Positions 2,736 through 63,300 of a stretch of DNA of 64,000 bases are shown here, piece by piece (position 1 is the stretch's first letter; every line of letters starts with the position of its first letter). Made by a program: the position numbers and the translations under genes. A model generated the notes under the pieces. That model saw only the letters and a program-made list of their open reading frames with translations. It searched no databases and was not told the DNA's origin. The stretch comes from Candidatus Eremiobacteria bacterium (lineage in GTDB: Bacteria; Vulcanimicrobiota; Vulcanimicrobiia; Vulcanimicrobiales; Vulcanimicrobiaceae), in assembly GCA_963758295.1 (NCBI GenBank), contig CAVWUU010000004.1:480001-544000 (forward strand), in the 5' to 3' direction.

Positions 2736-4344
2736 GTTGGCGAAGTTTAAAGCGCTGCACCTTACCCGTTTCGGTGCGCGGAAGCTCCGCGACGAATTCG
2801 ATTTCCCGCGGTGCCTTGAACGGTGCGATGATCCGCTTGCAGTGTTCGCGTAGCTCTTCGGATTTGGGATCACCGGCGAGCGCCGCATTAACGAGAACCA
2901 CGTAGGCTTTTACGATGTGGGTATCGTGCTGCGGATCCGGTTTCGCCACGACGGCGCATTCGCGAACCTCGGCATGCGTAAGCAGTGCCTGCTCGACTTC
3001 CGGACCGGAAATATTGTAGCCGGCCGAAACAATCATGTCGTCCGTGCGCGCGACGTAGTAAAAATACCCTTCTTCATCCATCCGATACGCATCACCCGGA
3101 TAGTTCCAACCGCTCCGGACGTAAGAAGATTGTCGGGCATCGTCAAGATACTTACAGCCCGTCGGGCCCCTAACGGCCAAACGGCCGACCTCACCGAAGG
3201 GCAATGTATTTCCGTCGTCGTCATGAATTTCAGCGTAATACCCGGGAACGGCGCGCCCGGTGGAACCGGCCTTCACCTCGTCGACGTCACTTCCGATGAA
3301 GATGTGCAGCATTTCGGTGCTTCCGATGCCATCGATGATCTTTATACCGGTCGCGTCGTGAAAGGCTTCCCACACCGGTTTCGGTAGCGTCTCCCCTGCG
3401 GAGACGCACGTATGCAGCGTCGACACATCGTATTTCGACGCTAGCGTCGCGATCGTCCGGTACGCAATCGGCGCGGTAAAAACGGTGGTGACGCCGAACT
3501 CCGCAATATTCCGCAACAGCTCTTCCGGGCCGGCTTTTTCGAGCAACAGCGTCGCAGCACCGGCATGAAGCGGAAAGAGCAGCAGGCCGCCCAAGCCGAA
3601 CGTAAACGCGAGCGGCGGACTGCCGCAGAACAAGTCATCGTGTTTCGGCTTGAGCACGCGCTTGCCGAACGTATCGCACGTAGCCAAGATGTCACGATGG
3701 AAGTGCATCGCGGCTTTCGGCGTGCCGGTCGTGCCCGACGTGAACGCGATAATGGCGACGTCTTGCGCGCCCGTCTGCACGCTCTCGAAGTGCGACGGTT
3801 TAGACGCCATCCGTGTCTCCAAACCATCTGCCGCATCGCTTCGAAAATGAACGGTCGCGATATCGACGTTGCCCGAGCAGGCCATGCCTAATTCGTCTGA
3901 CAGACGCGCGTCGCAAAGCGCGACGGTCACTTTTGCTTTCTCGATCATATGCCGCAATTCGTTCGCCCGATAGAGCGGCATGGTGGTAACGGCAACAGCG
4001 CCGGCTTTGAGCACGGCGAACCAGCACGCTGCCAGCATCGGCGAATTCGCGCCGCGAAGCAGAACCCGTGCTCCGGGAACGACGCCAAGGTCTTCTACAA
4101 GAACGCCGGCAATGCGATTCGAGGTCTCATACAGATCCTGATAAGTCCAATCGATGCCGCCCGGTGCCACGATACACCGGCGAGCGCCGTTGCCTTCGTG
4201 CACGTGACGGTCGAGCAGCCATTGCGCAGCGTTCAACTTATCCGAATAGTGGAGGTCGGGCAGATCGAACAGAAACTCGGGCATTGACTCCGCCGGGGGT
4301 AAGTGCTCCTCCGCGAAGCGGTCGACGTGTCCGCTAAACGCCAC
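2719..4344 (-). CDS. abmG: 2-aminobenzoate/benzoate-CoA ligase (AMP-binding)
   Basis: [20 protein letters not shown] and DGIGSTEM motifs; context with abmA-like gene. Confidence 0.8.
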
Positions 4345-6296: not shown

Positions 6297-6719
6297 CTAT
6301 CGAATCTGGAACGGAAGATCTTCTTCCGTTTCTGCGCCGGCGGTATTTCGCGCAATCACGCGCAAATCGTAACCCCTAATGAAGATCGAGGGCAGATCGA
6401 AGACGTCGACTCTAAAGGCGAAGTGCCCGAAATCGCGGCGTCGCGCATTGATCGAAAAGAGATTGTTTCTTACCTCTACGCTCGCGACGTTGGTGCTGGT
6501 ATCGATCTTTCCTTCCCAAGTGCTTGCACGTCTTACGTCGAGCGAATTAAACCACATCGCCTGAATCTTCGGTGCCGCCGCATTCGGAAGCGCGAGCGCA
6601 CGAACCGCCGGTACGGGCCTTCCAACCCGCGCATTTGGGGGCGGCGGTGGAGCACCGGAGCTGCATGCGCCAAGAGCACCGGCAAGAACGAGCAAAAGCA
6701 CGCGCGGCCATCGATTCAT
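6297..6719 (-). CDS. Hypothetical lipoprotein
   Basis: MNRWPRVLLLVLAGALGAC lipobox followed by Pro-rich linker. Confidence 0.65.
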   Translation of the reverse strand: MNRWPRVLLLVLAGALGACSSGAPPPPPNARVGRPVPAVRALALPNAAAPKIQAMWFNSLDVRRASTWEGKIDTSTNVASVEVRNNLFSINARRRDFGHFAFRVDVFDLPSIFIRGYDLRVIARNTAGAETEEDLPFQIR

Positions 6720-10123: not shown

Positions 10124-12443
10124 GCGAAGCCTCCTGCGCGCGAGCGATCAACCGTTCCAACTGCGATTTGCCGGGTAGATACTGGACGGGCCATTCTGCG
10201 CCGGAATACCCCAGTTGCGCAGCGGCATGAAGCGTCCAGGCGGGATCCGCTAAATGCGGCCTTCCAAGCGCAACGAGATCGGCGCGGCCGGCCGCAACGA
10301 TGGCATTGACCTGATCCGGCTCCGTGACGTTGCCGACGGCCATCGTCGCCATTCCCGTTTCGTTTCGAATCCGGTCGGCATACGGCGTTTGAAACATGCG
10401 TCCGTACACAGGTTTGGCGCCCGGATGGGTTTGGCCGGTCGAGACGTCGATCAAATCGGCGCCCGCGTCGCGGAATGCACGCGCAATCTGCACTGCGTCC
10501 TCGCCCGTGATGCCGCCCTCATACCAATCGGTCGCGGAAATGCGTACGGACATCGGGCGGTCGTCAGGCCAGATTGCGCGCATCGAGGCAAAGATTTCGA
10601 GCGGGTAGCGCAAGCGATTCTCGAGCGAACCGCCGTACTCGTCGGTTCGCTGATTGCTGAGCGGAGTAATGAAACTGGAGAGCAGATAGCCGTGCGCGCA
10701 GTGCAGTTCGAGCATGTCAAAACCGGCTTCGATTGCCATGCGCGTAGCGCGTTCGAACTCGGCACGTATTTTCTGCATTTCTTCGCGATCGAGTTCGCGT
10801 GGAATTTGGTTTGCGGGTGAATAGGGCACGGCCGACGGGCCGACGACGTCCCAATTGCCCGCCGCAAGCGGCTCGTCCATGCCCTCCCACATCAGGCGCG
10901 TGGAGCCTTTGCGTCCGGAGTGACCGAGCTGGAGGCAAATTTTCGCGCCGCTCCAGTCGTGCACGAAGTCAACGAGGCGCTTGAAAGCCGGAACATGTTC
11001 GGGAAGGTACATGCCGCAACAGCCTGGGGAGATGCGGCCCTCACGCGAGACGCACGTCATCTCCGTAAATACCAAACCAGCACCGCCAAGCGCGCGCGCG
11101 CCGAGATGTACGAGATGGAAATCGTTGGGCATACCGTCGACCGCGCTGTACATGTCCATGGGCGACACCACAACGCGGTTGCGCAAGACGAGCCGGCGCA
11201 AGCGGAGTGAAGTGAACATTGGCGGGACCGGCGCTTCGAGCGTCATCTCGCCGTTGGCGCGCGCGGCGGCATGGGCCCGCTGCGCGAACCATTCCTCCAT
11301 CCGTTCGACGTATATACTATCGCGCAACCTCAGGTTCTCGTGACCGATCCGCTGGCTGCGGGTCAGCAAGCTGTACGCAAACTGCTCGGGCGGCAGCACA
11401 GCATAGCGTGCGACGTTCTCGAACCATTCAGTCGAATTGCGCGCCGCGTTTTGGAGCTTCAGCACCTCGATTTTGCGAGCGGCCTCATATTCGCGCATTG
11501 CAAGCGCTACGTCGCCTTCGCGGCCGAGCGCCTCAACGAGGGCGATCGCATCTTCGAGCGCTAGCTTGGTTCCCGAGCCAACCGAAAAGTGCGCGGTGTG
11601 CGCGGCATCACCAATCAGGACCACGTTCTCATGCACCCACGAGTCGTTGCTCACGCGCGTGAAGTTGATCCAGTCCCGCCCTCGCAAGTGCGCGCTATTG
11701 GCCATAAGGCCGTGGCCTTTTAGGTACGGCGCGAATAAACGCTCGCAAAAGTCGATGGTCTCGCTGGTGTCCGCTTTGTCCAGCCCGTGCGCGAGCCACG
11801 TTTCTTCGCGGCATTCAACGATGAACGTGCTCGTGGTTTCGTCGAAGCGATACGCATGCACCGCGAACCAGCCGAACTCCGTCTGTTCGAAAATGAAGGT
11901 AAAAGCGTCGAGCGGCAAGGTGGTGCCGAGCCAGACAAACCGGCAAATCCGGCGATCGAGATTTGGCTTGAACGCGTCCGCGTACGCCGCCCGGATGCGG
12001 CTGTTGATGCCGTCGCTCGCAATAAGCAGGTCGCTCTCCTCGCGGTACGCCGCCACGTTTTCGACGTCCGTTTCAAACGCGAGGTTGACACCCAGTTCTT
12101 CGGCGCGGTCTTGCAGAATGTTCAGCAGCCGCTTGCGCGCGATGCCCGAAAACCCATGACCGCCTGAAATCGTCTTGGTGTCCTTGAAGTTGATCTCGAT
12201 ATCGTCCCAATGTGCGAACGACGACGTGATCGCCTCGTGCGTCGGCGCGTCGGCGGCGCGTAGCTTGTCGAGCGTCGCATCCGAAAAGACAACACCCCAC
12301 CCAAACGTGTCGTGCGGGCGATTGCGCTCGGCCACGGTCACGTCCCAATGCGGAAAGCGCTGTTTCGCAAGGATTGCCGTATACAGTCCTGCGGGTCCGC
12401 CTCCGACACAAGTTACGCGCAGCGGCGCCGACGTCGTCTTCAT
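10113..12443 (-). CDS. abmA: Bifunctional anthraniloyl-CoA monooxygenase/reductase (salicylyl-CoA 5-hydroxylase)
   Basis: N-terminal FAD monooxygenase ([32 protein letters not shown]) fused to OYE domain ([16 protein letters not shown]). Confidence 0.88.
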
Positions 12444-53379: not shown

Positions 53380-53826
53380 CTACGCGCTGACGGTCGCGGA
53401 CATGCGATGCGGGATCGAGCGGCCTTCCTCGAGGTCGAGAAGGTCCGGCCATGTCCTCACGTCTTTACGATCGGGAGCGATCTTGTCCCGCAATTGGTTG
53501 AAATGCTCCAAGGACTCACCCGACGGTGTTTGCGTTAGACAGAGCTTATTAAACTCACCGATCTGCTGCGGCGTCTTTTTCGCAAGGAACCCCTTGACGT
53601 AATTCTCGATCTCGGAATCCTGCTTCGCATTGGTAACGACTTTGAGATACTCAACGTCATTCATCCCGAGGAAATCGAACAGGCCTTTATCCATCGAGGA
53701 ATTATATTCGTATTCGCCGATGGTGCCGTGCGCTGCGGCTTGCGCTTTATCGGTCGTGCGGCCGAGTTGCACAATCCCGAGGAATTTGTCGCGAACGCTG
53801 CGCGGCGTGCCTTTGGTCAGATCCAT
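53380..53826 (-). CDS. DUF5069-family protein
   Basis: DLTKGTPRS...GRTTDKA...GEYEY...DLLDLEEGR. Confidence 0.75.
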   Translation of the reverse strand: MDLTKGTPRSVRDKFLGIVQLGRTTDKAQAAAHGTIGEYEYNSSMDKGLFDFLGMNDVEYLKVVTNAKQDSEIENYVKGFLAKKTPQQIGEFNKLCLTQTPSGESLEHFNQLRDKIAPDRKDVRTWPDLLDLEEGRSIPHRMSATVSA

Positions 53827-53956
53827 ATGGTTTTCTTTTCTGTAAATCACGAGTGCGTTTAAATGAGCACTTGTGCATTCGTAGTGACGTCCGCCACACC
53901 ACGATAAGTTGCACTCGCATCGAGAAAAGAAAAAGTCAATAAATACCAGGTGTTTT

Positions 53957-55295: not shown

Positions 55296-56264
55296 TTAAA
55301 GACCGCTTCGGTGATGGCCCAACACCTTTGCAATTAGCTCGGATCTGTTGCGGGACTCCGTCTTTTCCAGCATGCTCTTAATATGGTCTTGGACTGTTGA
55401 CGATGCGATGTGCATCATCTCCGCAACCTCGTCGAGGGTGGCCCCCCTCAAAAGGTGCGCGAGAGTCTCCAGTTCGCGCGGAGACAGATTGAATGCACGT
55501 GCCGCTCTGTTGAAGACCTGACCGCCCGGCGGACGCTCCAGCAAAACGCCAACGAAAAGTCCTGTGACCCCCGAGAGCGGCTGGACGCGAACGGTGAGAA
55601 ACGGGACGGGCTGTACCACCGCAATGGCCTGCTGGTCGGCGGTCCATGTCTTGATAACGTCGCGTACAGCGTCCTCGATTGCCGGCGGTAAGCGTTGCGC
55701 AAGGCACGCATGAAGCGCAGTAATCGCTGCAGTCCGCCCCTCCTCAGCATCCCAGGAAAGGATGACCGCTAGGTCGCGATCGAGGACGTACATTGCCGTC
55801 TGATCGAGCTTGTGCGCAGGTGCTGTGGCAGGCGACGCTTCCGCGATTGGAAGGCCTGAAAGTCGATCCGTCGACGAGTCTAGGGCCAGGGCGAGCGCCT
55901 GGATTTCTGCGGACGTGAAAGAGCCGAGCTCCTCCGTGCGCAGGAGGCTCAGCAATCCGAATTCCCGTCGCATGCCCGCGAACACGAGCGTGATTCCGCT
56001 GAGATAGGGCTTTTGGAGGGTACGGAGCGTGGCTGCCAGTCGGGGACCCTTAGTCGTCTGTTCCCGCTGCAATCGGAGTTCTGCTCTTAAGTATTCGAAC
56101 TCATCGCGGCGATTCTCGCTCTCGTGGGACGAGATCAACTGATCGTTGGGTCCGGCATCCTTAAAACGCGCGAAGCTCCAATGCGACACGTGGACGACGC
56201 TCAATATCTCGGCAATGAGCACGCGCGCGGGATCATCGTTGGCGAGCGTTTCAATCGCTGCCAC
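55296..56264 (-). CDS. LuxR-type HTH regulator with N-terminal GAF/PAS-like region
   Basis: LSPRELE...TVQDHIKSMLEKT...RSEL; GAGGAGG SD. Confidence 0.8.
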   Translation of the reverse strand: MAAIETLANDDPARVLIAEILSVVHVSHWSFARFKDAGPNDQLISSHESENRRDEFEYLRAELRLQREQTTKGPRLAATLRTLQKPYLSGITLVFAGMRREFGLLSLLRTEELGSFTSAEIQALALALDSSTDRLSGLPIAEASPATAPAHKLDQTAMYVLDRDLAVILSWDAEEGRTAAITALHACLAQRLPPAIEDAVRDVIKTWTADQQAIAVVQPVPFLTVRVQPLSGVTGLFVGVLLERPPGGQVFNRAARAFNLSPRELETLAHLLRGATLDEVAEMMHIASSTVQDHIKSMLEKTESRNRSELIAKVLGHHRSGL

Positions 56265-56474
56265 ATCCGCCTCCTCAAGGCGGATGCGCTTGTCGATGCT
56301 CAGAGTGACGAAGCCTCGAAGCCACGTCTCGTCAAGGCAAGCGCTGCTAAGCTGTCCATGATTTCCACGATTACCACGATTACCAGCATACCAGAACCAT
56401 GAGAAACTACGTGCAGGGCCTCTCTAAGCGCCCTTCCAGTCGCTCTTCGGCGGAGCCGAGAAGTCAAGGAACTC

Positions 56475-56882
56475 ATGGAGCACCTCAGATGTGCCGTTCT
56501 GAGCAGCGACCAAGATGCCACTAACAGATTTAGTTGTGTACTTGTCGAGGCCGGCTACGATCGTCCACGATGCTTGGAAGCTCTTGGCGTTGCAAAACTC
56601 GGGACGTATGAACCATCGGTCTTGATGGTCGACTTCGATCACTTTCGAAGCGATCAGCTGGAGTCGATTAGGCAGCTTCGTTTCGTCTTACCAGATTGCG
56701 CGATCGTGGTTGTGTCGTCGAATCTCCAGAGAACGTGGGCCAGAAGGTGCCATATGGCCGGTGCCAACGCGGTGCTTTCCAGTGGAAGCGGCGCGAAACA
56801 CATGCTCGCCGGCCTTCAGCGCGCAGTCCGTACAGGTTGTTACACCGACCCGGACTTTGCCACTAACGCAGCGGAGCAATAG
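56475..56882 (+). CDS. Stand-alone receiver-like domain protein
   Basis: LMVD, IVVVSS and AGANAVL pattern; AAGGA SD. Confidence 0.65.
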   Translation: MEHLRCAVLSSDQDATNRFSCVLVEAGYDRPRCLEALGVAKLGTYEPSVLMVDFDHFRSDQLESIRQLRFVLPDCAIVVVSSNLQRTWARRCHMAGANAVLSSGSGAKHMLAGLQRAVRTGCYTDPDFATNAAEQ

Positions 56883-57047
56883 CGGGCCGAGTAGTTCCGA
56901 CGTCACAGATTGCAAATATTTTTGCCCGACTCGGCGCGTCATCGCATGCTATGATCGTTGCCAGTTGCCCTATTTCGCTTTGCGGCATTTGCCTTTCCCG
57001 GGCGCGCATAGCACGTAACGAACTCGCACACCGACAAGGAGCGCGCG

Positions 57048-57353
57048 ATGCTCGAGCACCTGACTCAGATTCAGCCGCTGCTGGCAATCGGCGTGATGGT
57101 TAGCACGGCGGCAACCGATGCGGTGTACGTGCTCTTCACGTCAGCGGTTGCGGGACGGCATCGAATTGCCGCCTCAAGCTGGAGCAGCGTGTGGTATTTG
57201 CTTTCGTCGTTCGCTGTAATCACGTACACGCGTGATTGGACCTACGTGGTCTTCGCGGCGATCGGTTCGTGGATCGGTGCATACATCTCGATGACGTTCT
57301 TGCATGCGTCGTCGCAAGCACCGAAGCCCCCGCTCGCCCGGACGCCGCCGTAA
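57048..57353 (+). CDS. Small membrane protein
   Basis: Three hydrophobic segments; AAGGAG SD. Confidence 0.7.
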   Translation: MLEHLTQIQPLLAIGVMVSTAATDAVYVLFTSAVAGRHRIAASSWSSVWYLLSSFAVITYTRDWTYVVFAAIGSWIGAYISMTFLHASSQAPKPPLARTPP

Positions 57354-57476
57354 ACGCGTAGATATTTATACGGGAGAAACACGGCAACATCGAGCTTCGG
57401 AGATTTAAGCGGGACGTCTAACGCCAGCTTGGCGGTTGGCGTAAAGCCGGGCTCCCGGTGGTAAAATCGTTACGTT

Positions 57477-58022
57477 ATGGTAATCGGAATTGTCGGTGCG
57501 GACGATCGCGCGGTGACGATCGCCCGCCAGCTTCGGACCTGCGGGCACACCGTGAGCTTTAGCGACCCTAACGGCGTGGACCACGCCGACAAAGCGGTCG
57601 CGGCGCTAGCCGACCCGGCGGTTACCGCTACGACGACCTACAATCAAGCCGCCACGTGCGAGACCTTGATCCTCGCGATCCATTGGGAAGACATGGACAA
57701 GACGCTAACGCAGCTGGGGGACTATAAGGACGGCGTGGTCATTGACGCCATGCGTCCACCGCACATTGACGGCGCCGAAAATAGTGCGCTCGTGCTCGAG
57801 AAGAAACTCGATAACCGCCATGTGGTGAAAGCCTTCGTCGAAGAGCCGCTGCCTCGCGGTGAAATTCGCGTCGCGTCCGACGACCCCGAAGCGCGCATGA
57901 TGGTATGCGAGTTGATAGACTCTTGCGGCGGCAAAGCGGTTGATGCGGGGGCCCTCGCCGAAGCTCTGCAAATCGAACGCCGTTTTTCGGACGAAACGAA
58001 AGCGATCAGAGGAACCATATAA
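57477..58022 (+). CDS. F420-dependent NADP oxidoreductase-like Rossmann protein (degenerate)
   Basis: IGIVG, VIDA, VVKAF, SDD and AVDAGAL motifs. Confidence 0.7.
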   Translation: MVIGIVGADDRAVTIARQLRTCGHTVSFSDPNGVDHADKAVAALADPAVTATTTYNQAATCETLILAIHWEDMDKTLTQLGDYKDGVVIDAMRPPHIDGAENSALVLEKKLDNRHVVKAFVEEPLPRGEIRVASDDPEARMMVCELIDSCGGKAVDAGALAEALQIERRFSDETKAIRGTI

Positions 58023-58639
58023 GCAGATATACCGGGCTCGCCTGCGTATGCGTTACGCTCAGCGGCGCGCTCCTTGGCAACGTTGCCACCGAGAAACTTG
58101 TCGACGCCGGCCTTTTCGCAGGAAGCGCTTACGACGCTCACCATGAATCGGTCGGTATCGTCATGTTTCTCACTGCGTGCGCGCTCTTTGTGCTCGCGGG
58201 ATCGCTCCTGGGCGCCGATCTTCCATCGTTGCGACGATTGCTCACCGAACAACGATCGGGAGCCGCGGTCGTCGTCGAGTTTTTTCTCGGCGTCGCGGGC
58301 GCCATGTCGGTTATTCTGCTGATGGAAGGCTACGAGACCCATTTCGGCGGGCTCTCACCCTTCGATCCGCATGCGGTGCTCATGCACGATGCGCCGGCTA
58401 CGATCGTCGTCTACATTGCCGTCTTCGCGATCGCGCGATGGCTCATCGATCGCTTCGCTCAAGTAGTCGGCGCAGCCGGCCTTATTCTCGGCGCGGCGTT
58501 CTCGCTTATTCGCCGCAATCGCTCCGGCGGTGCGCCGCTACGGCGCGAGCGTAGCAAACCGGTTCTTTCGCCGGCTCGCAATGTTTGCAGCCGGCAAGGT
58601 GAACTTCGAGCGCCTCCGCGCGCAACCGTGGCCCTTTAA
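58019..58639 (+). CDS. Membrane leader protein ending in RAPP arrest-like motif; possible ATA start 58019 (first ATG 58163)
   Basis: Frame open from 58019; about 4 TM segments, His motifs DAHHES and PHAVLMHD; C-terminal GELRAPP; 24 nt before TBDR. Confidence 0.65.
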   Translation: MSRYTGLACVCVTLSGALLGNVATEKLVDAGLFAGSAYDAHHESVGIVMFLTACALFVLAGSLLGADLPSLRRLLTEQRSGAAVVVEFFLGVAGAMSVILLMEGYETHFGGLSPFDPHAVLMHDAPATIVVYIAVFAIARWLIDRFAQVVGAAGLILGAAFSLIRRNRSGGAPLRRERSKPVLSPARNVCSRQGELRAPPRATVAL

Positions 58640-58663
58640 CACCACGCTGCTCCGGGGTTCGCC

Positions 58664-61408
58664 ATGTCAGGATTCTTCAGACGCGCCTTCGCCGCGTCTT
58701 CGCTCGCATTACTCCTTCCATTTCTTTCGATAGCTTCGATTCGCGCCGCGGAAGCTACGACCGGGACGATCGCGGGAACCATTTCCGACAGCGATCACCA
58801 TCCCGTGGTCAACGCCGACGTAACGGCTACTTCGCCGTCGGCTCGCTTCGAGACGAAAAGCGACGCCGCGGGCCACTTCGCCATCTACGGCGTCGCGCCG
58901 GACACGTACGCCGTCTCCGTGCATGCCGGCGGCTACGACTCCCTTTCACAAGCCGGCATCACCGTTCTCGCAGGAACACGCCAAATGGTGGTCTTTCAAC
59001 TGGTGAAGCAACTCAAGACCATCGCTACGGTCCGGGCGACGGTGCGTGCCTTCACCGCAGGATCGACGAGCGACACATTCACGGTATCCGGGTCCGCCGC
59101 TCGCGCGCAGATGCCGGCCGCCGGAAGCGCCGGTCTTGCAACCTACACCCGAGGCACCGTGCAAGGCGCCATCTCCGGCGTGCCGGGCATCGAACAAGAT
59201 CCGTTCGCCAACGCAATCGTTCGCGGGGGGAAGATTGATGATGCGGTGTTTACCTACGACTCCGTTCCAATTCCCCAAGGACTCGTGGCGGAGCCGGGAG
59301 GCAACGTTGTCGGCGCGCAGCTCGCAACCACCGGCATCGGTGAAACCACGGTTACGCTCGCTGGATTTACGACCCAATCCGATAACGCGCTAGGCGGCGT
59401 GATCAATGAAATCCCGCTTACCGGCGTGTATCCCGGAACGACGGAGGTGCAAACGGCTACGGGCATCGGCTCCGGCAACCGCGAGGTGCAGCTTCGGTCA
59501 CAATGGGCGACGCCGGATCTCAAATGGCGCTACGCATTCGCCGGAACTGCCGGCAGCGAAGATTTTTTATATGGCGACGGACATTCGTTCTATCCCGCGG
59601 AGATCGGAACGTTCGGTCTGGCGCTGTCGACGCGCGCTCAGTGGTCGATGGCCGGAAACGTGCATTACCAAGTGCGTCAGCACGACGATCTTGCGCTGAT
59701 CGGACTCGTAGGCGAAGCGACGTACAATCAATACGGAACGCCCTTTACCGGCGAGACGTACGGGTTTCTCAACGGATCTTCGACGGCATTTCCCGGTGGC
59801 CAACCGGCGGACCGGCAAGTCGACACGCCTTCGATGATTCGCGGAACCTACGATGTTGTGAAAGCGCAGTGGTCGCACGCCCGGCCGAAATCGTTCTTTC
59901 GCGCGCAACTCTACCAATCGCAGTTTGGCGCCGGTGCGAACGGGCCGTTCTGGGATGACAACGGATTTCCGGACGGAGCCATTTCGATCTATCAACGCCA
60001 GGGCGGGCGTCTCACCGGCATTGGCGTCGACGTTCAAGCTGACGCGGGCGAGCGGCACAACGTCTACTACGGCGTCGATTATCGTTCGTCGGCCTCGTGG
60101 CTCGATCAAATCGTTCCGACGGCGGACGAACTGATCACTTCGAACCCAAGCATAATTACGACGCTCGCGTATCTAGGTGATACGTGGAGCATGTCGCCGC
60201 GTTTTGATCTCGGGATGACTTTACGCGCGGTCCATGCGGGCATCGCTCGTAGCGATGGTCCCGGCTACGCCATTGGCGCGCTCGATCCGCATCTATCGCT
60301 CGCGTACCGGTTCGGTGATGCCTTTGCGTTCCGCACGACCTACGATCGCACGACGGTAGTTCCAAAGGGTCTCGAAGTCGACCGCACCGACTCTACAAAC
60401 GTCGATCAACACGGCAACCCGGCGCCGACAACGCAGCTTGCGCCGGAAGCCGGCGACTTCTTCACGTATTCGCTCGAACATAGCGGCGCGACGCGCGCAC
60501 GTTTGACCTACTTCGCGCAACGTGAAACAAATCGCATAGATGTCCTGCCTTATAACTTCCGTCAGGCGATCGCCAACGGGCAGGTGCCGAACGGGCTGGG
60601 CATTCCGAGCAACGCCGGAACGCTGCGCGCTCACGGTCTGGAGTTCTGGATGCAACGCAGCGGCTTTACGTTCGACGCAGACTACATTCGTGCGCTCTCC
60701 TCCAGCGCTTCGCAATTCGCGTATAACGAGCTCAACGCGCCCGCGACCGCTGCCGGACATCTCTTTCCCGCGTCGTACGTTCCGGATCTTGAGGCGTCAG
60801 TATCGTACGAGATTCGTTTAACTCGCAACTTGCGCATCATCCCGTCGCTTTCGTACGAAACCGGATTTCCTTATGGAGTCGGGCGTAAGGTTTGGATTTT
60901 CGACGCTGGCGGGCATCCGATGCAAGTCAACAACGACAATAACGTCAATCCGGGTTACAACTATTACTTCCTGCGCGATCCCTCGCAATCGTTCAACGCT
61001 TTGTCGAACCCTTATATCGGTTCTCTCGGCACTCCCGAGGGCAACGACCCGAATACGCTTCGCACGCCACCGCAAACGCTCGTCTCACTCGAGGCGCGTC
61101 TCGACGTTCATCCGCGCACTTCAATCGTGCTCGATGTCTCTAACTTCTTTGGAACTTCAGCTCCCACCGAACTGACGAGCAATCCATATCTCATTGGACC
61201 ACCGGGCTACACGGGCGGCAAGCCGTCTTATGCCTCCTGGTATCAGCAACAACTCGGCAGCAATAAACCGTACACACTGGGAAACGGCATTCCGACTAGC
61301 AACGGCTACTCGCAAATTCTGCCGTGGACATATGGAACCGCCGGCTACGTCCCATCTTCTTATCCCCTCGCACGCAGCGTTCGATTACGCATCATTTGGC
61401 AACTCTAA
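58664..61408 (+). CDS. TBDR-like outer-membrane protein with carboxypeptidase-regulatory-like N-domain
   Basis: Signal peptide, TTGTIAGTI, plug (SGVPGI, GGVINE), C-terminal beta-strand VRLRIIWQL. Confidence 0.8.
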   Translation: MSGFFRRAFAASSLALLLPFLSIASIRAAEATTGTIAGTISDSDHHPVVNADVTATSPSARFETKSDAAGHFAIYGVAPDTYAVSVHAGGYDSLSQAGITVLAGTRQMVVFQLVKQLKTIATVRATVRAFTAGSTSDTFTVSGSAARAQMPAAGSAGLATYTRGTVQGAISGVPGIEQDPFANAIVRGGKIDDAVFTYDSVPIPQGLVAEPGGNVVGAQLATTGIGETTVTLAGFTTQSDNALGGVINEIPLTGVYPGTTEVQTATGIGSGNREVQLRSQWATPDLKWRYAFAGTAGSEDFLYGDGHSFYPAEIGTFGLALSTRAQWSMAGNVHYQVRQHDDLALIGLVGEATYNQYGTPFTGETYGFLNGSSTAFPGGQPADRQVDTPSMIRGTYDVVKAQWSHARPKSFFRAQLYQSQFGAGANGPFWDDNGFPDGAISIYQRQGGRLTGIGVDVQADAGERHNVYYGVDYRSSASWLDQIVPTADELITSNPSIITTLAYLGDTWSMSPRFDLGMTLRAVHAGIARSDGPGYAIGALDPHLSLAYRFGDAFAFRTTYDRTTVVPKGLEVDRTDSTNVDQHGNPAPTTQLAPEAGDFFTYSLEHSGATRARLTYFAQRETNRIDVLPYNFRQAIANGQVPNGLGIPSNAGTLRAHGLEFWMQRSGFTFDADYIRALSSSASQFAYNELNAPATAAGHLFPASYVPDLEASVSYEIRLTRNLRIIPSLSYETGFPYGVGRKVWIFDAGGHPMQVNNDNNVNPGYNYYFLRDPSQSFNALSNPYIGSLGTPEGNDPNTLRTPPQTLVSLEARLDVHPRTSIVLDVSNFFGTSAPTELTSNPYLIGPPGYTGGKPSYASWYQQQLGSNKPYTLGNGIPTSNGYSQILPWTYGTAGYVPSSYPLARSVRLRIIWQL

Positions 61409-62280
61409 CCCCCGTCATCGTGAGCTTGTCGAACGAGAGGCGCATATCAACACAGGCCATCTCGATCAGCGAAAAACGTAAGGCGATCGCGCAAGCTCAA
61501 GGTGAGATGCGCTTGTCCTTCGACGGGCTCAGGATGACGGGGGTACGTTCATCCAGACGGTGCACTATCGAAAATCGACCTCCGAACACTCTACCCCGTC
61601 ATCGTGAGCTTGTCGAACGAGAGGCGCATATCAATACAGGCCACCTCGACCACCGAGAAACGTAAGGCGATCGCGCAGCTCAAGGTGAGATGCGCTTGTC
61701 CTTCGACGGGCTCAGGATGACGGGGGTACGTTCATCCAGACGGTGCACTATCGAAAATCGACCTCCGAACACTCTAACCCCCGTCATCGTGAGCTTGTCG
61801 AACGAGAGGCGCATATCAACACAGGCCATCTCGATCAGCGAAAAACGTAAGGCGATCGCGCAAGCTCAAGGTGAGATGCGCTTGTCCTTCGACGGGCTCA
61901 GGATGACGGGGGTACGTTCATCCAGACGGTGCACTATCGAAAATCGACCTCCGAACACTCTAACCCCCGTCATCGTGAGCTTGTCGAACGAGAGGCGCAT
62001 ATCAACACAAGCCATCTCGGTCAGCGAAAAACGTAAGGCGATCGCGCAAGCTCAAGGTGAGATGCGCTTGTCCTTCGACGGGCTCAGGATGACGGGGGTA
62101 CGTTGATCCGGACGGTGCACTATCGAAAATCGACCTCCGAACACTCTAACCCCCGTCATCGTGAGCTTGTCGAACGAGAGGCGCATATCAACACAGCCCC
62201 TCTCGGACACCGCAAACCGGAGCGATCGCGCAAGCTCAAGGTGAGATGCGCTCGTCCTTCGACAAGCTCAGGATGACGGG
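61409..62280. repeat. Tandem array of about 186-bp units (5 long hairpins, 4 linkers), same REP-like family as 43178-43949
   Basis: GTCATCGTGAGCTTGTCGAA starts at 61414, 61598, 61783, 61969, 62155. Confidence 0.92.
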
Positions 62281-62410
62281 TCGGAACAAGCCGTCGGCGT
62301 GAGCGGGGGAACGCCTTTTTTGCGTTGGCTGCGTGAAGATCGATACAGTACAGACACTCCGCATCGCGTTGATCGTGATAGTGATGGCGAAGCCGGCCGT
62401 CTTCGCTCAC
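62156..62410 (-). CDS. Possible small His/Cys-rich protein reading into the repeat array
   Basis: GTG just after the cytochrome c stop, AAGGA SD; HHYHDQRDAECLYCIDLH. Confidence 0.35.
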   Translation of the reverse strand: MSEDGRLRHHYHDQRDAECLYCIDLHAANAKKAFPRSRRRLVPTRHPELVEGRAHLTLSLRDRSGLRCPRGAVLICASRSTSSR

Positions 62411-62414
62411 ACGA

Positions 62415-62837
62415 TTAGTCCTTAACGATCGGTGCCTTTGACTTCGTAGCGCTGCTAAAGCTCAGCGGCGATCCGCCGGCCTTGTAACCGTTCTTGCTTA
62501 GGATGAACGCCATGACATTTACGTATTGGTCATGCGAAAGCGACGCAGGCGCGTTCATCGGCATGTTGGTCGTCATGTACGTAAAAATATCGGAAACGCT
62601 CGCGTGCACTTTGGTGCTCAAAGTCTTGAAATTCGGACCGGTAAGCGCCGGCCCGGCACCGCCTTCGAGTGACGCGCCGTGACACATCGCGCAACTCGTG
62701 GCGAACTGCTTCGAGCCCGCCGTGGCTTGTGCTGCCGAAAAGGTTACCGGCGCACCAGCCGCCCGCGGATGCCCCGCTGAAACGGCCGCGACCGCGACGA
62801 GCGCGGCACTCGCGAGAACTGCTGGAATGGCTTTCAC
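62415..62837 (-). CDS. Secreted monoheme cytochrome c
   Basis: Signal peptide, CAMCH, distal MP. Confidence 0.9.
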   Translation of the reverse strand: MKAIPAVLASAALVAVAAVSAGHPRAAGAPVTFSAAQATAGSKQFATSCAMCHGASLEGGAGPALTGPNFKTLSTKVHASVSDIFTYMTTNMPMNAPASLSHDQYVNVMAFILSKNGYKAGGSPLSFSSATKSKAPIVKD

Positions 62838-62844
62838 CTACGCG

Positions 62845-63300
62845 TTATCCTCCGTGCACCTGGCGGTGAACTTCATCGAGGTCTTCAAGCGTATTCAACG
62901 TTACCGCGTCGGAAATCGTCGCGTCTTGAATGCCCGAGGAGCCGCGCATCTTCGTCGCCAGGTCGTCGGCATGGTTGTAGCCATGCACCGCGTCGTTGTG
63001 CTTGCGGATCGTTTCCGGTGAAATCGAGCCGCCGTTCTGCTGGATCACCCATTGCTCGAACTGCATATACGTCGGCTTGTTTTGCCGGACGAAGGCCATC
63101 GTTTTATCGCGGTCGAGATTGAGACCGCTAAGGGTCATCGCATCGAAGCCGTGCCCGCACTCGTCGTAATCGTCGGGCAGTAATCCCTTGCTCGCGAGCG
63201 TCAGCTTCAACCAGAGACGCGGAAGGTGGATCGCTCCGAGCGGACCCGCAGTGTCGGAGCTCATCAATGGAACGATTTTTTGCGACGTTGCGCTTTGCAT
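62845..63300 (-). CDS. DUF5069-like protein
   Basis: GPLGAIHLPRLWLK...FD...PTYMQFEQW...LEDLDE; AAGGAG SD. Confidence 0.7.
   Translation of the reverse strand: MQSATSQKIVPLMSSDTAGPLGAIHLPRLWLKLTLASKGLLPDDYDECGHGFDAMTLSGLNLDRDKTMAFVRQNKPTYMQFEQWVIQQNGGSISPETIRKHNDAVHGYNHADDLATKMRGSSGIQDATISDAVTLNTLEDLDEVHRQVHGG

Follow-up and report, generated by a model that had tools for sequence, protein, structure and literature searches.

A RAPP-ending four-helix leader and a predicted start-site hairpin ahead of a TonB-dependent receptor gene in Vulcanimicrobiota

The leader gene and the receptor gene that follows it

In a 64,000-nucleotide stretch of Candidatus Eremiobacteria bacterium DNA (assembly GCA_963758295.1, contig CAVWUU010000004.1, positions 480,001 to 544,000; hereafter the window), an open reading frame (ORF) for a predicted membrane protein lies directly ahead of a gene for a TonB-dependent receptor (TBDR) (Table 1). 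The leader ORF runs for 206 codons from an ATA codon at 58019; its C-terminal end reads GELRAPPRATVAL*, and the stop codon occupies 58637 to 58639. Six more codons follow LRAPP before that stop, and the gap to the TBDR ATG at 58664 is 24 nucleotides (nt). A preliminary description of this DNA had proposed that RAPP stalls the ribosome and that the stalled ribosome melts an mRNA hairpin hiding the TBDR start. The frame end, the RAPP codons, the two pairing arms (GGTGAACTTCGAGC at 58598 to 58611 and GCTCCGGGGTTCGCC at 58649 to 58663) and the ATG that it gave all proved correct on rereading, and a contig from a public DNA run spans 58583 to 58733 with zero differences from the window. The feature is real and conserved, as regards the ORF, its RAPP end, the gene order, a set of acidic residues, and their fixed spacing from RAPP.

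A relative of the leader was encoded in 43 of 45 candidate stretches of a named genome collection, 40 of them titled Eremiobacterota, Vulcanimicrobiota or Ca. Cybelea and 3 carrying other depositor labels. RAPP ends 42 of the 43 loci (the remaining one is truncated), and in 40 a TBDR of the same kind starts next, which bears out the expectation that RAPP would be conserved upstream of such receptors. Since only 6 of 6,802 frames of at least 150 amino acids (aa) in the window's own genome have R[AG]PP within the last 15 aa, this frequency is not due to chance. The motif was as constant in 48 nonredundant close leaders, one truncated row having been dropped, and 91 of 102 unselected library matches of 190 to 280 aa carried RAPP, RGPP or RSPP in their last 40 residues. 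Library proteins in alignment A3 (130 members) were chosen to have a RAPP-type motif, so RAPP invariance in A3 is no evidence. The distance from E103 to R197 is 94 aa in the window and 91 to 100 aa in the 130 A3 members; E103 to RAPP spans 94 to 99 aa in 35 diverse members that are 13 to 32% identical to the window protein.

Within the phylum, the 130-member profile matched 185 of the 317 genomes, as many as 7 times in a single genome; the tally includes genome G059, which is flagged unpublished and on which nothing else depends. Matches were confined to three families of the window's class, with zero in the 16 other families searched, and Pfam, NCBIfam and the ESM Atlas gave no family name for the leader. 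The leaders form a Vulcanimicrobiota (Eremiobacterota) family without a database name. The window leader has the sequence features of a RAPP-class upstream ORF (uORF): RAPP or RGPP near the C terminus, a length below 300 aa, a localization signal in the form of membrane helices, and a co-oriented downstream gene.

The leader had been described as a protein of about 200 aa. The frame does encode 206 aa, but full length requires the ATA at 58019, and the first ATG, at 58163, would give 158 aa. A Shine-Dalgarno (SD)-like AGAGGA ends 5 nt ahead of the ATA, the start codons of homologues align with it in the family alignments, and the same-genus relative G003 has the same ATA and SD arrangement, with an in-frame stop just 5' of the ATA. 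Compared with G003, codons 1 to 48 comprise 31 identical, 8 synonymous and 9 nonsynonymous codons (differences by codon position, 5/4/11) and are better conserved than the remainder of the leader; because they are mostly identical or synonymous, they appear to be under selection. Public DNA contigs cover this region only in pieces, and the contig across the ATA may be G003-like and was not counted as independent. From the sequence arrangement, it is fairly probable that the leader is translated by reinitiation at the ATA. Ahead of the ATG or GTG start of 42 relatives, GGAG, GAGG and AGGA were all absent, which suggests leaderless mRNAs for the leader genes of other relatives. Many of the leader starts in loci L007 to L067 have a TA-rich element 6 to 14 nt upstream, within the 20 nt inspected. 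In loci L200, L216 and L217, the F420_oxidored gene stands directly before the TBDR with no leader, the leader having been lost or gained at this junction.

The TBDR matches PF13620 (CarboxypepD_reg) only in Pfam and is 54% identical to a homologue that matches the PF00593 barrel. Its structure model has a predicted local distance difference test (pLDDT) score of 59.6, with a poor plug region, and gave FpvA-, FhuE- and Fiu-type matches with E values of 1e-21 to 1e-19 and TM-scores of ~0.4. Foldseek matches included FpvA (E value, 2.7e-21) and many other TBDRs, consistent with a plug and beta-barrel, the plug region being of low confidence. Searched against the sequences of solved structures, the TBDR alignment matched with its N-terminal domain only, and no substrate was readable from the structure matches. 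No Rfam family was found in window positions 56000 to 63000, and promoter and terminator scans at the locus gave results at or below chance. Among public runs, none of RNA was listed as containing the locus. The window's own genome, G000, holds 19 TBDR-profile matches, mostly to the N-terminal part only, and a scan of it for RAPP-like leaders ahead of long ORFs found only this TBDR so paired.

Table 1. Coordinates of the leader, the predicted hairpin elements and the adjacent genes in the window
Feature	Position	Strand	Remarks
F420_oxidored (PF03807) gene	57477..58022	+	Stop overlaps leader start; for most genomes, context outside the switch
AGAGGA SD-like element and ATA candidate start	58008..58021	+	Overlaps upstream stop TAA (58020-58022); putative start
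Leader ORF	58019..58639	+	206 aa from ATA; four predicted transmembrane helices (~7-25, 45-64, 84-103, 125-145); both termini predicted inside
Candidate ligand site, first half	58079..58144	+	N21 (Asp in most homologues), E25, D39, H42; outward-facing; putative ligand role
Candidate ligand site, second half	58322..58387	+	M102-E103-x-x-E106, YETHFGG-PFD loop, H123
Anti-SD arm, Gly-Glu-Leu-Arg codons	58598..58608	+	Minimum free energy fold; under footprint of ribosome at RAPP; footprint lowers opening cost of TBDR start from 14.6 to 7.5 kcal/mol
RAPP arrest-type motif (R197-P200)	58607..58618	+	Six codons before stop; RAPP in 47/48 nonredundant close leaders, RSPP in 1
Inner stem-loop CGTGG/CCACG over leader stop codon	58627..58646	+	Minimum free energy fold; persists with footprint held open
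TBDR initiation region, GGGG SD-like run and ATG	58653..58666	+	Predicted to be sequestered
TBDR gene	58664..61408	+	914 aa; N-terminal CarboxypepD_reg; 24 nt after leader stop

The predicted hairpin over the receptor start

A stem of 14 bp with one bulge had been proposed between the leader end and the TBDR start. It can be written by hand, and the inner CGTGG/CCACG stem forms (58627-58631 with 58642-58646), but the minimum free energy fold of 58585 to 58675 retains 11 of the 14 bp, pairing 58598-58608 with 58653-58663. The stability of the window fold, -36.8 kcal/mol (z, -2.16), is modest alone, with 5 of 200 shuffles equally stable.

A further measure was the drop in the energy needed to open the start region downstream when a 28-nt ribosome footprint around Pro199 was held unpaired. 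Of 104 leader loci, 95 entered the analysis; 5 lacked a usable start and 4 belonged to another or an uncertain class. As controls, 39 ordinary gene pairs, all from the window's own genome, were used. The computed release had a median of 3.0 kcal/mol at the leader loci, reaching at least 2 in 60 and at least 4 in 32 of the 95, and a median of -0.01 kcal/mol in the control pairs, reaching at least 2 in 3 and at least 4 in 1 of the 39. The window itself gave 7.1 kcal/mol, and none of the 39 controls was as closed as the window's 14.6 kcal/mol. Release was ~0 with the footprint 18 nt or more upstream, had a median of 0.6 at -6 nt and 3.0 at 0, and was full from RAPP onward. Across the 95 loci, with their unrelated stem sequences, the partners of the SD are most frequent at +6 to +23 nt, counted from the Arg codon's first base. 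The proposal that a stalled ribosome frees the TBDR start is thus supported computationally, by the footprint release and by SD partners that lie under the footprint. The predicted stem-loop covers the SD and overlaps the stalled footprint, as in an SD-sequestration switch.

Arm swaps left the native arm ahead of 95% of the substitutes in 27 of 95 loci, and ahead of every substitute in the window; against synonymous recodings, it exceeded the mean in 76 of 95. By these arm swaps and recodings, the Pro codons alone explain only part of the SD pairing. Covariation of the 14-bp stem, which had been expected in homologues, found no support, the same-genus relative pairing its SD with the Ala-Pro-Pro codons instead. 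Simple covariation of that stem is ruled out, as the stem is not conserved between loci. Its SD-hiding function appears to be conserved, though the exact 14-bp stem is not.

Leader anatomy, candidate ligand site and other target genes

The four helices and their topology are computed, as are the hairpin and its opening by the footprint. The AlphaFold2 model of the leader (mean pLDDT, 85) places helices at residues 3-29, 43-64, 81-110 and 125-168 and an unstructured tail from ~169; residues 146 to 168 form an amphipathic helix. On family averages, K/R lie in the loops after transmembrane helices (TM) 2 and 4, those after TM1 and TM3 hold D/E, and on that account both termini are predicted to be inside. 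A Foldseek search with the leader model gave no clear match (best E value, 0.5). The best score in a VIA fold search (Z, 7.7) was to ABC-permease TM domains and within the common helical-bundle range, so that no new fold is shown.

Five near-invariant positions, D/N21, E25, D39, E103 and E106, lie on the predicted outer face in K/R-poor loops. Among the 130 members, D21 is found in 117 (it is Asn in the window), E25 in 127, D39 in 129, E103 in 130, E106 in 129, and H42 in 70. The leader had tentatively been proposed to sense through His motifs (DAHHES and PHAVLMHD). H42 and H123 do stand on or next to conserved His columns, a His at the start of TM4 being present in 46 of 48 close homologues with that of the window, H123, one residue earlier, but the others are variable (H41 in 7, H108 in 22 and H118 in 9 of the 48). 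This poor conservation in the 48 close homologues rules out His-based sensing as first proposed; the near-invariant residues are Asp and Glu. From the predicted topology, we infer that the conserved acidic residues converge into one site. Oxygen-rich ligand sets prefer Mg, Ca, Mn or Fe over Cu. Because the near-invariant residues are outward-facing carboxylates, a hard divalent cation (Mg, Ca or Mn) is favored as the putative signal, which is a lead and not a result.

Leaders of this family also stand before other genes. Sixty loci, hand-picked among the matches listed (150 of 438), gave 61 leader matches, 56 with RAPP in the best frame. These 56 lie before the same TBDR family in 23 cases, before LCP (LytR-CpsA-Psr) genes in 30, and before other genes in 3; Pfam confirmed LCP in 20 of 22 non-TBDR downstream genes tested. 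Behind the TBDR or LCP gene, the next gene is not conserved. In a leader tree (FastTree, midpoint root, 96 of 123 leaders kept), the LCP leaders form one clade (0.94) among TBDR leaders, which suggests a single recruitment of the leader from TBDR to LCP genes. Distant subfamilies, drawn from ten genomes searched in full, carry a His in position 21 and either a D-x-x-H or an H-x-H loop, with RAPP, RGPP or RPPP as their ending. The 24 downstream genes scanned comprised 19 TBDR-like genes, 1 SCO1/SenC, 1 redoxin, 1 LCP, and 2 unassigned.

Several paralogues have features of their own. A second leader paralogue in G000 (contig C2:178858-179350, minus strand) is frameshifted and truncated, with an LCP-type WLGGP loop and RAPP+4; no LCP gene was found in this 82%-complete genome, and a PstS-like gene, read by eye, lies ~1.4 kb downstream. 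The leaders of loci L161, L162 and L170 end in ANRPPP, not RAPP, and have His at 21 and 42; two of them precede genes without a Pfam match. Tandem units also occur: L100 has two leader-TBDR units, and in L047 a His-type leader (11326-11985) immediately follows the TBDR.

The proposed switch, its rivals and known systems

We propose that the C-terminal RAPP arrests the leader's own ribosome, probably with Pro199 in the P site, and that a ribosome held there would keep the hairpin open and expose the TBDR ribosome-binding site, making the stall the ON state. At arrest, ~35 to 40 residues would be in the exit tunnel and all four helices already in the membrane. Helix 146-168 would sit just outside the tunnel, where ligand-driven packing of the bundle would pull the chain. 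A divalent cation (likely Mg, Ca or Mn) bound by the outward Asp and Glu residues would then release the arrest and turn the TBDR off. The arrest position and the ON state are inferred by analogy with work on SecM, CutF, CruR and Streptomyces lividans leaders, and a stall-ON switch with ligand release, as in CruR, would be the simplest logic for an importer. We put the probability of this whole model at roughly 0.55. Control of the TBDR by arrest and hairpin is very likely; granted that, a metal ion is the probable signal, and granted a metal, we lean toward Mg, Ca or Mn rather than a softer one.

The genomic surroundings offer some clues to the signal. M-box magnesium riboswitches turned up in 4 of the 52 leader loci scanned, all four being leader-LCP loci from a single genus (L122:3810-4013, L124:5598-5764, L126:1743-1912 and L127:570-746); they lie within a few kb of the leader-LCP units, and Nramp-like genes stand near the M-box in L122, L124 and L127. 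Nramp-like genes were found in 6 of 94 loci overall, and in 2 close kin MgtC comes immediately after the TBDR. Dependence on Mg has been described for LCP transferases (10.1101/2024.10.21.619401). No conserved neighbor gene pointing to the signal was found among the loci compared.

A number of observations weigh against the divalent-cation switch. At its 5' end, the leader ORF has no ATG, GTG or TTG before TM1, which is thus without a canonical start in the window, and N21 replaces the usual Asp. Release is below 2 kcal/mol in 35 of 95 loci. A terminating ribosome opens the SD by at least 2 kcal/mol in 48 of 89 loci, but fails to do so in the window; therefore, dwell time and not position must carry the signal. 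The window arm stands at the 47th percentile of its own synonymous recodings, no better, and lies 5' of the family norm, and the same-genus relative does not share it. The 95 loci are kin, so p values for release overstate, and the controls were only 39 pairs from one genome. Many TBDR copies carry no leader, so the receptor works without one. The TBDR family is present in 107 of 214 genomes; upstream DNA taken for 48 copies without a listed adjacent leader gave 2 with a leader, 3 at contig ends and 43 without, and by hand count a leader precedes 61 of 104 evaluable copies and is missing from ~43. RAPP also does not guarantee arrest: 6 of 7 S. lividans peptides were mostly full length on E. 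coli ribosomes (PMC12992588). Finally, the hints of Mg are sparse, concentrated among close relatives and without a background rate, and other neighbors point elsewhere, with a ModA-like binding protein in 7 of 94 loci, PCuAC in 1, and cobalamin riboswitches, which point away from Mg, in L089 and L174.

In L089, the cobalamin riboswitches lie by the TBDR family member and before a second TBDR (3860-3982 and 6525-6643), and in L174 on the opposite strand, upstream of the TBDR family member (1204-1376). Among the leaderless TBDR copies (46 of the 48 loci, the two leader-bearing ones being left out), the riboswitch scan returned one cobalamin riboswitch, on the opposite strand.

Could the same switch monitor membrane insertion or envelope biogenesis (Sec or YidC capacity, like SecM, MifM and ApcA)? 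The charged helix ends would then make the leader a demanding insertion substrate, with TBDR and LCP genes responding to envelope state and not to a ligand. All identified downstream genes do encode exported or membrane proteins, LCP ligases are envelope enzymes and not importers, and known monitoring substrates operate in this way (PMC10987492). However, a sec or yidC gene was found behind none of the leaders examined; where such monitors have secA, secDF or yidC downstream, here TBDR, LCP, SCO1, redoxin or unassigned genes follow. The five near-invariant acidic positions, and the subfamily His swaps that track the downstream gene, resemble a ligand site. Helix insertion pulls on the nascent chain at 30 to 40 residues, and TM4 ends ~54 residues before the P site, beyond that distance. 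We regard insertion monitoring as unlikely.

We doubt still more that the acidic and His cluster senses something other than a metal alone, such as external pH or a cation-bridged polyprenyl phosphate, which would link the switch to LCP substrate supply. Carboxylates and His are titratable, more than half of the RAPP-bearing paralogue loci (30 of 56) precede LCP genes, and LCP substrates are polyprenyl pyrophosphates (10.1101/2024.10.21.619401); however, there is no conserved outward-facing Arg for a phosphate, and the LCP clade looks derived from TBDR leaders. It is improbable, too, that the arrest controls Rho-dependent termination with the hairpin secondary. The CruR model is a precedent (PMC9426467), no convincing intrinsic terminator lies between leader and TBDR, and hairpin release is little in many loci, but the intergenic gap is 24 nt, not 162, and partner-specific SD pairing recurs under the footprint. 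That the leader is decaying or nonregulatory in this genome, yielding only a 158-aa three-helix product while the TBDR is read independently, is very improbable: the ATA as only start, N21, a same-genus genome without the leader that still has an xTA-TAA gene end (L200), and the damaged second paralogue (C2 178858-179350) fit it, but codons 1 to 48 are better conserved with G003 than the rest, and E25, D39, H42, RAPP, spacing and hairpin are all intact.

The logic of the cation-released switch resembles a CutF/SecM-type SD switch with a CruR-like target. CruR of Bordetella pertussis (Bp2923, DUF2946/PF11162), whose arrest has been demonstrated (PMC12992588), is likewise the first gene before a TBDR (BfrG), ends in RAPP, and has a conserved sensor-to-RAPP spacing that matters for its function (PMC9426467); the stall-ON state would be shared. 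As described there, CruR is a poorly structured protein of 145 aa that uses CxxC, cytoplasmic copper, Rho and a 162-nt gap, whereas the leaders described here have ~206 to 220 aa, four predicted helices and a candidate Asp/Glu site, with a 24-nt gap and a predicted SD-hiding hairpin in the window. The preliminary description had placed this multipass leader outside the DUF2946/CxxC group, and rightly so. None of the 130 members matches PF11162 at an E value of 0.01, nor does anything in the window's own genome; there is no conserved Cys column for a CxxC or CxxxC, a CxxC string occurring anywhere in 12 of 130 members. With four hydrophobic helices, the leader also differs from the short, single-export-signal proteins of the DUF2946, CruR and CutF type.

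CutF (Rhodobacter capsulatus cutFOG) shares with the proposed switch a nascent exported sensor whose stall melts a stem-loop over the downstream SD, and extracytoplasmic metal sensing (PMC9973294, 10.1101/2025.02.05.636593). It differs in its cleavable signal, its CxxxC and its proline-rich motif, and its stall is brought on by copper (PMC9973294), whereas the window leader is polytopic and ends in RAPP, and its ligand would release the stall. Of similar build are the S. lividans peptides SLIV_18480, SLIV_27375 and SLIV_33595 as well as SLIV_33605, which have four predicted TM and a C-terminal RAPP or RGPP; arrest was shown for such four-TM peptides, and a His/Met metal site was predicted for SLIV_18480 (PMC12992588). 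By that description they are set apart by His/Met or Cys residues and by other downstream genes. Actinomycetota clusters in the ESM Atlas have a feature similarity of 0.96 to the leader, a lead only. SecM, MifM, VemP and ApcA/ApdA/ApdP share with the proposed switch the opening of an SD-sequestering stem-loop by a stalled ribosome and a RAPP-class motif (PMC10987492, PMC10951233), but they precede sec or yidC genes and sense translocation force (PMC10987492).

What has already been published is a RAPP uORF before a TBDR and a stall that opens an SD hairpin, and this general logic limits the surprise. TBDRs head the classes found behind RAPP uORFs, a signal sequence being present in nearly all (PMC12992588, Fujiwara 2025), and the uORF table of the same work includes at least one member of the present leader family, MBV8344835.1 (L024), before a TBDR. 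New are the leader family, the carboxylate site, the modular spread and the LCP link. LCP lies outside the 30 enriched RAPP classes given in PMC12992588, and we found no literature on this leader family or on a RAPP leader before LCP genes, in a search that mostly excluded subscription journals. The same report states that the release of RAPP arrest in leaders not monitoring Sec or YidC is open (PMC12992588). The family offers a natural test series for that question, with a predicted rigid scaffold and a fixed lever of 91 to 100 residues to RAPP, in which outward residues (Asp/Glu or His) and targets (TBDR, LCP, SCO1, redoxin) vary by subfamily. Should the carboxylate branch sense Mg, Ca or Mn, the reach of arrest peptides would go past copper, and periplasmic ion reporters could be made from them. 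A broader, tentative and rather doubtful picture is that Vulcanimicrobiia use one expandable four-helix scaffold as a cotranslational periplasmic ion sensor on a RAPP brake. In it, the carboxylate branch, to which the window leader belongs, would sense Mg, Ca or Mn to govern a TonB importer and would later have been taken up by LCP cell-wall ligase genes, and the His branches would have shifted to transition metals, serving other importers and SCO1. Such a scheme would supply a first arrest peptide reading a hard divalent cation outside the membrane, as well as a first connection between arrest control and wall-polymer attachment.

Two further observations concern the surroundings of the locus. 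Two small ORFs on the minus strand (53383-53850 and 62845-63300) are alike in makeup, the first matching DUF5069 (PF16798) and the second no Pfam family. After the TBDR, at 61400 to 62150, the window holds several near-identical repeats, probably like repetitive extragenic palindromes, with repeated peptide text in overlapping ORFs.

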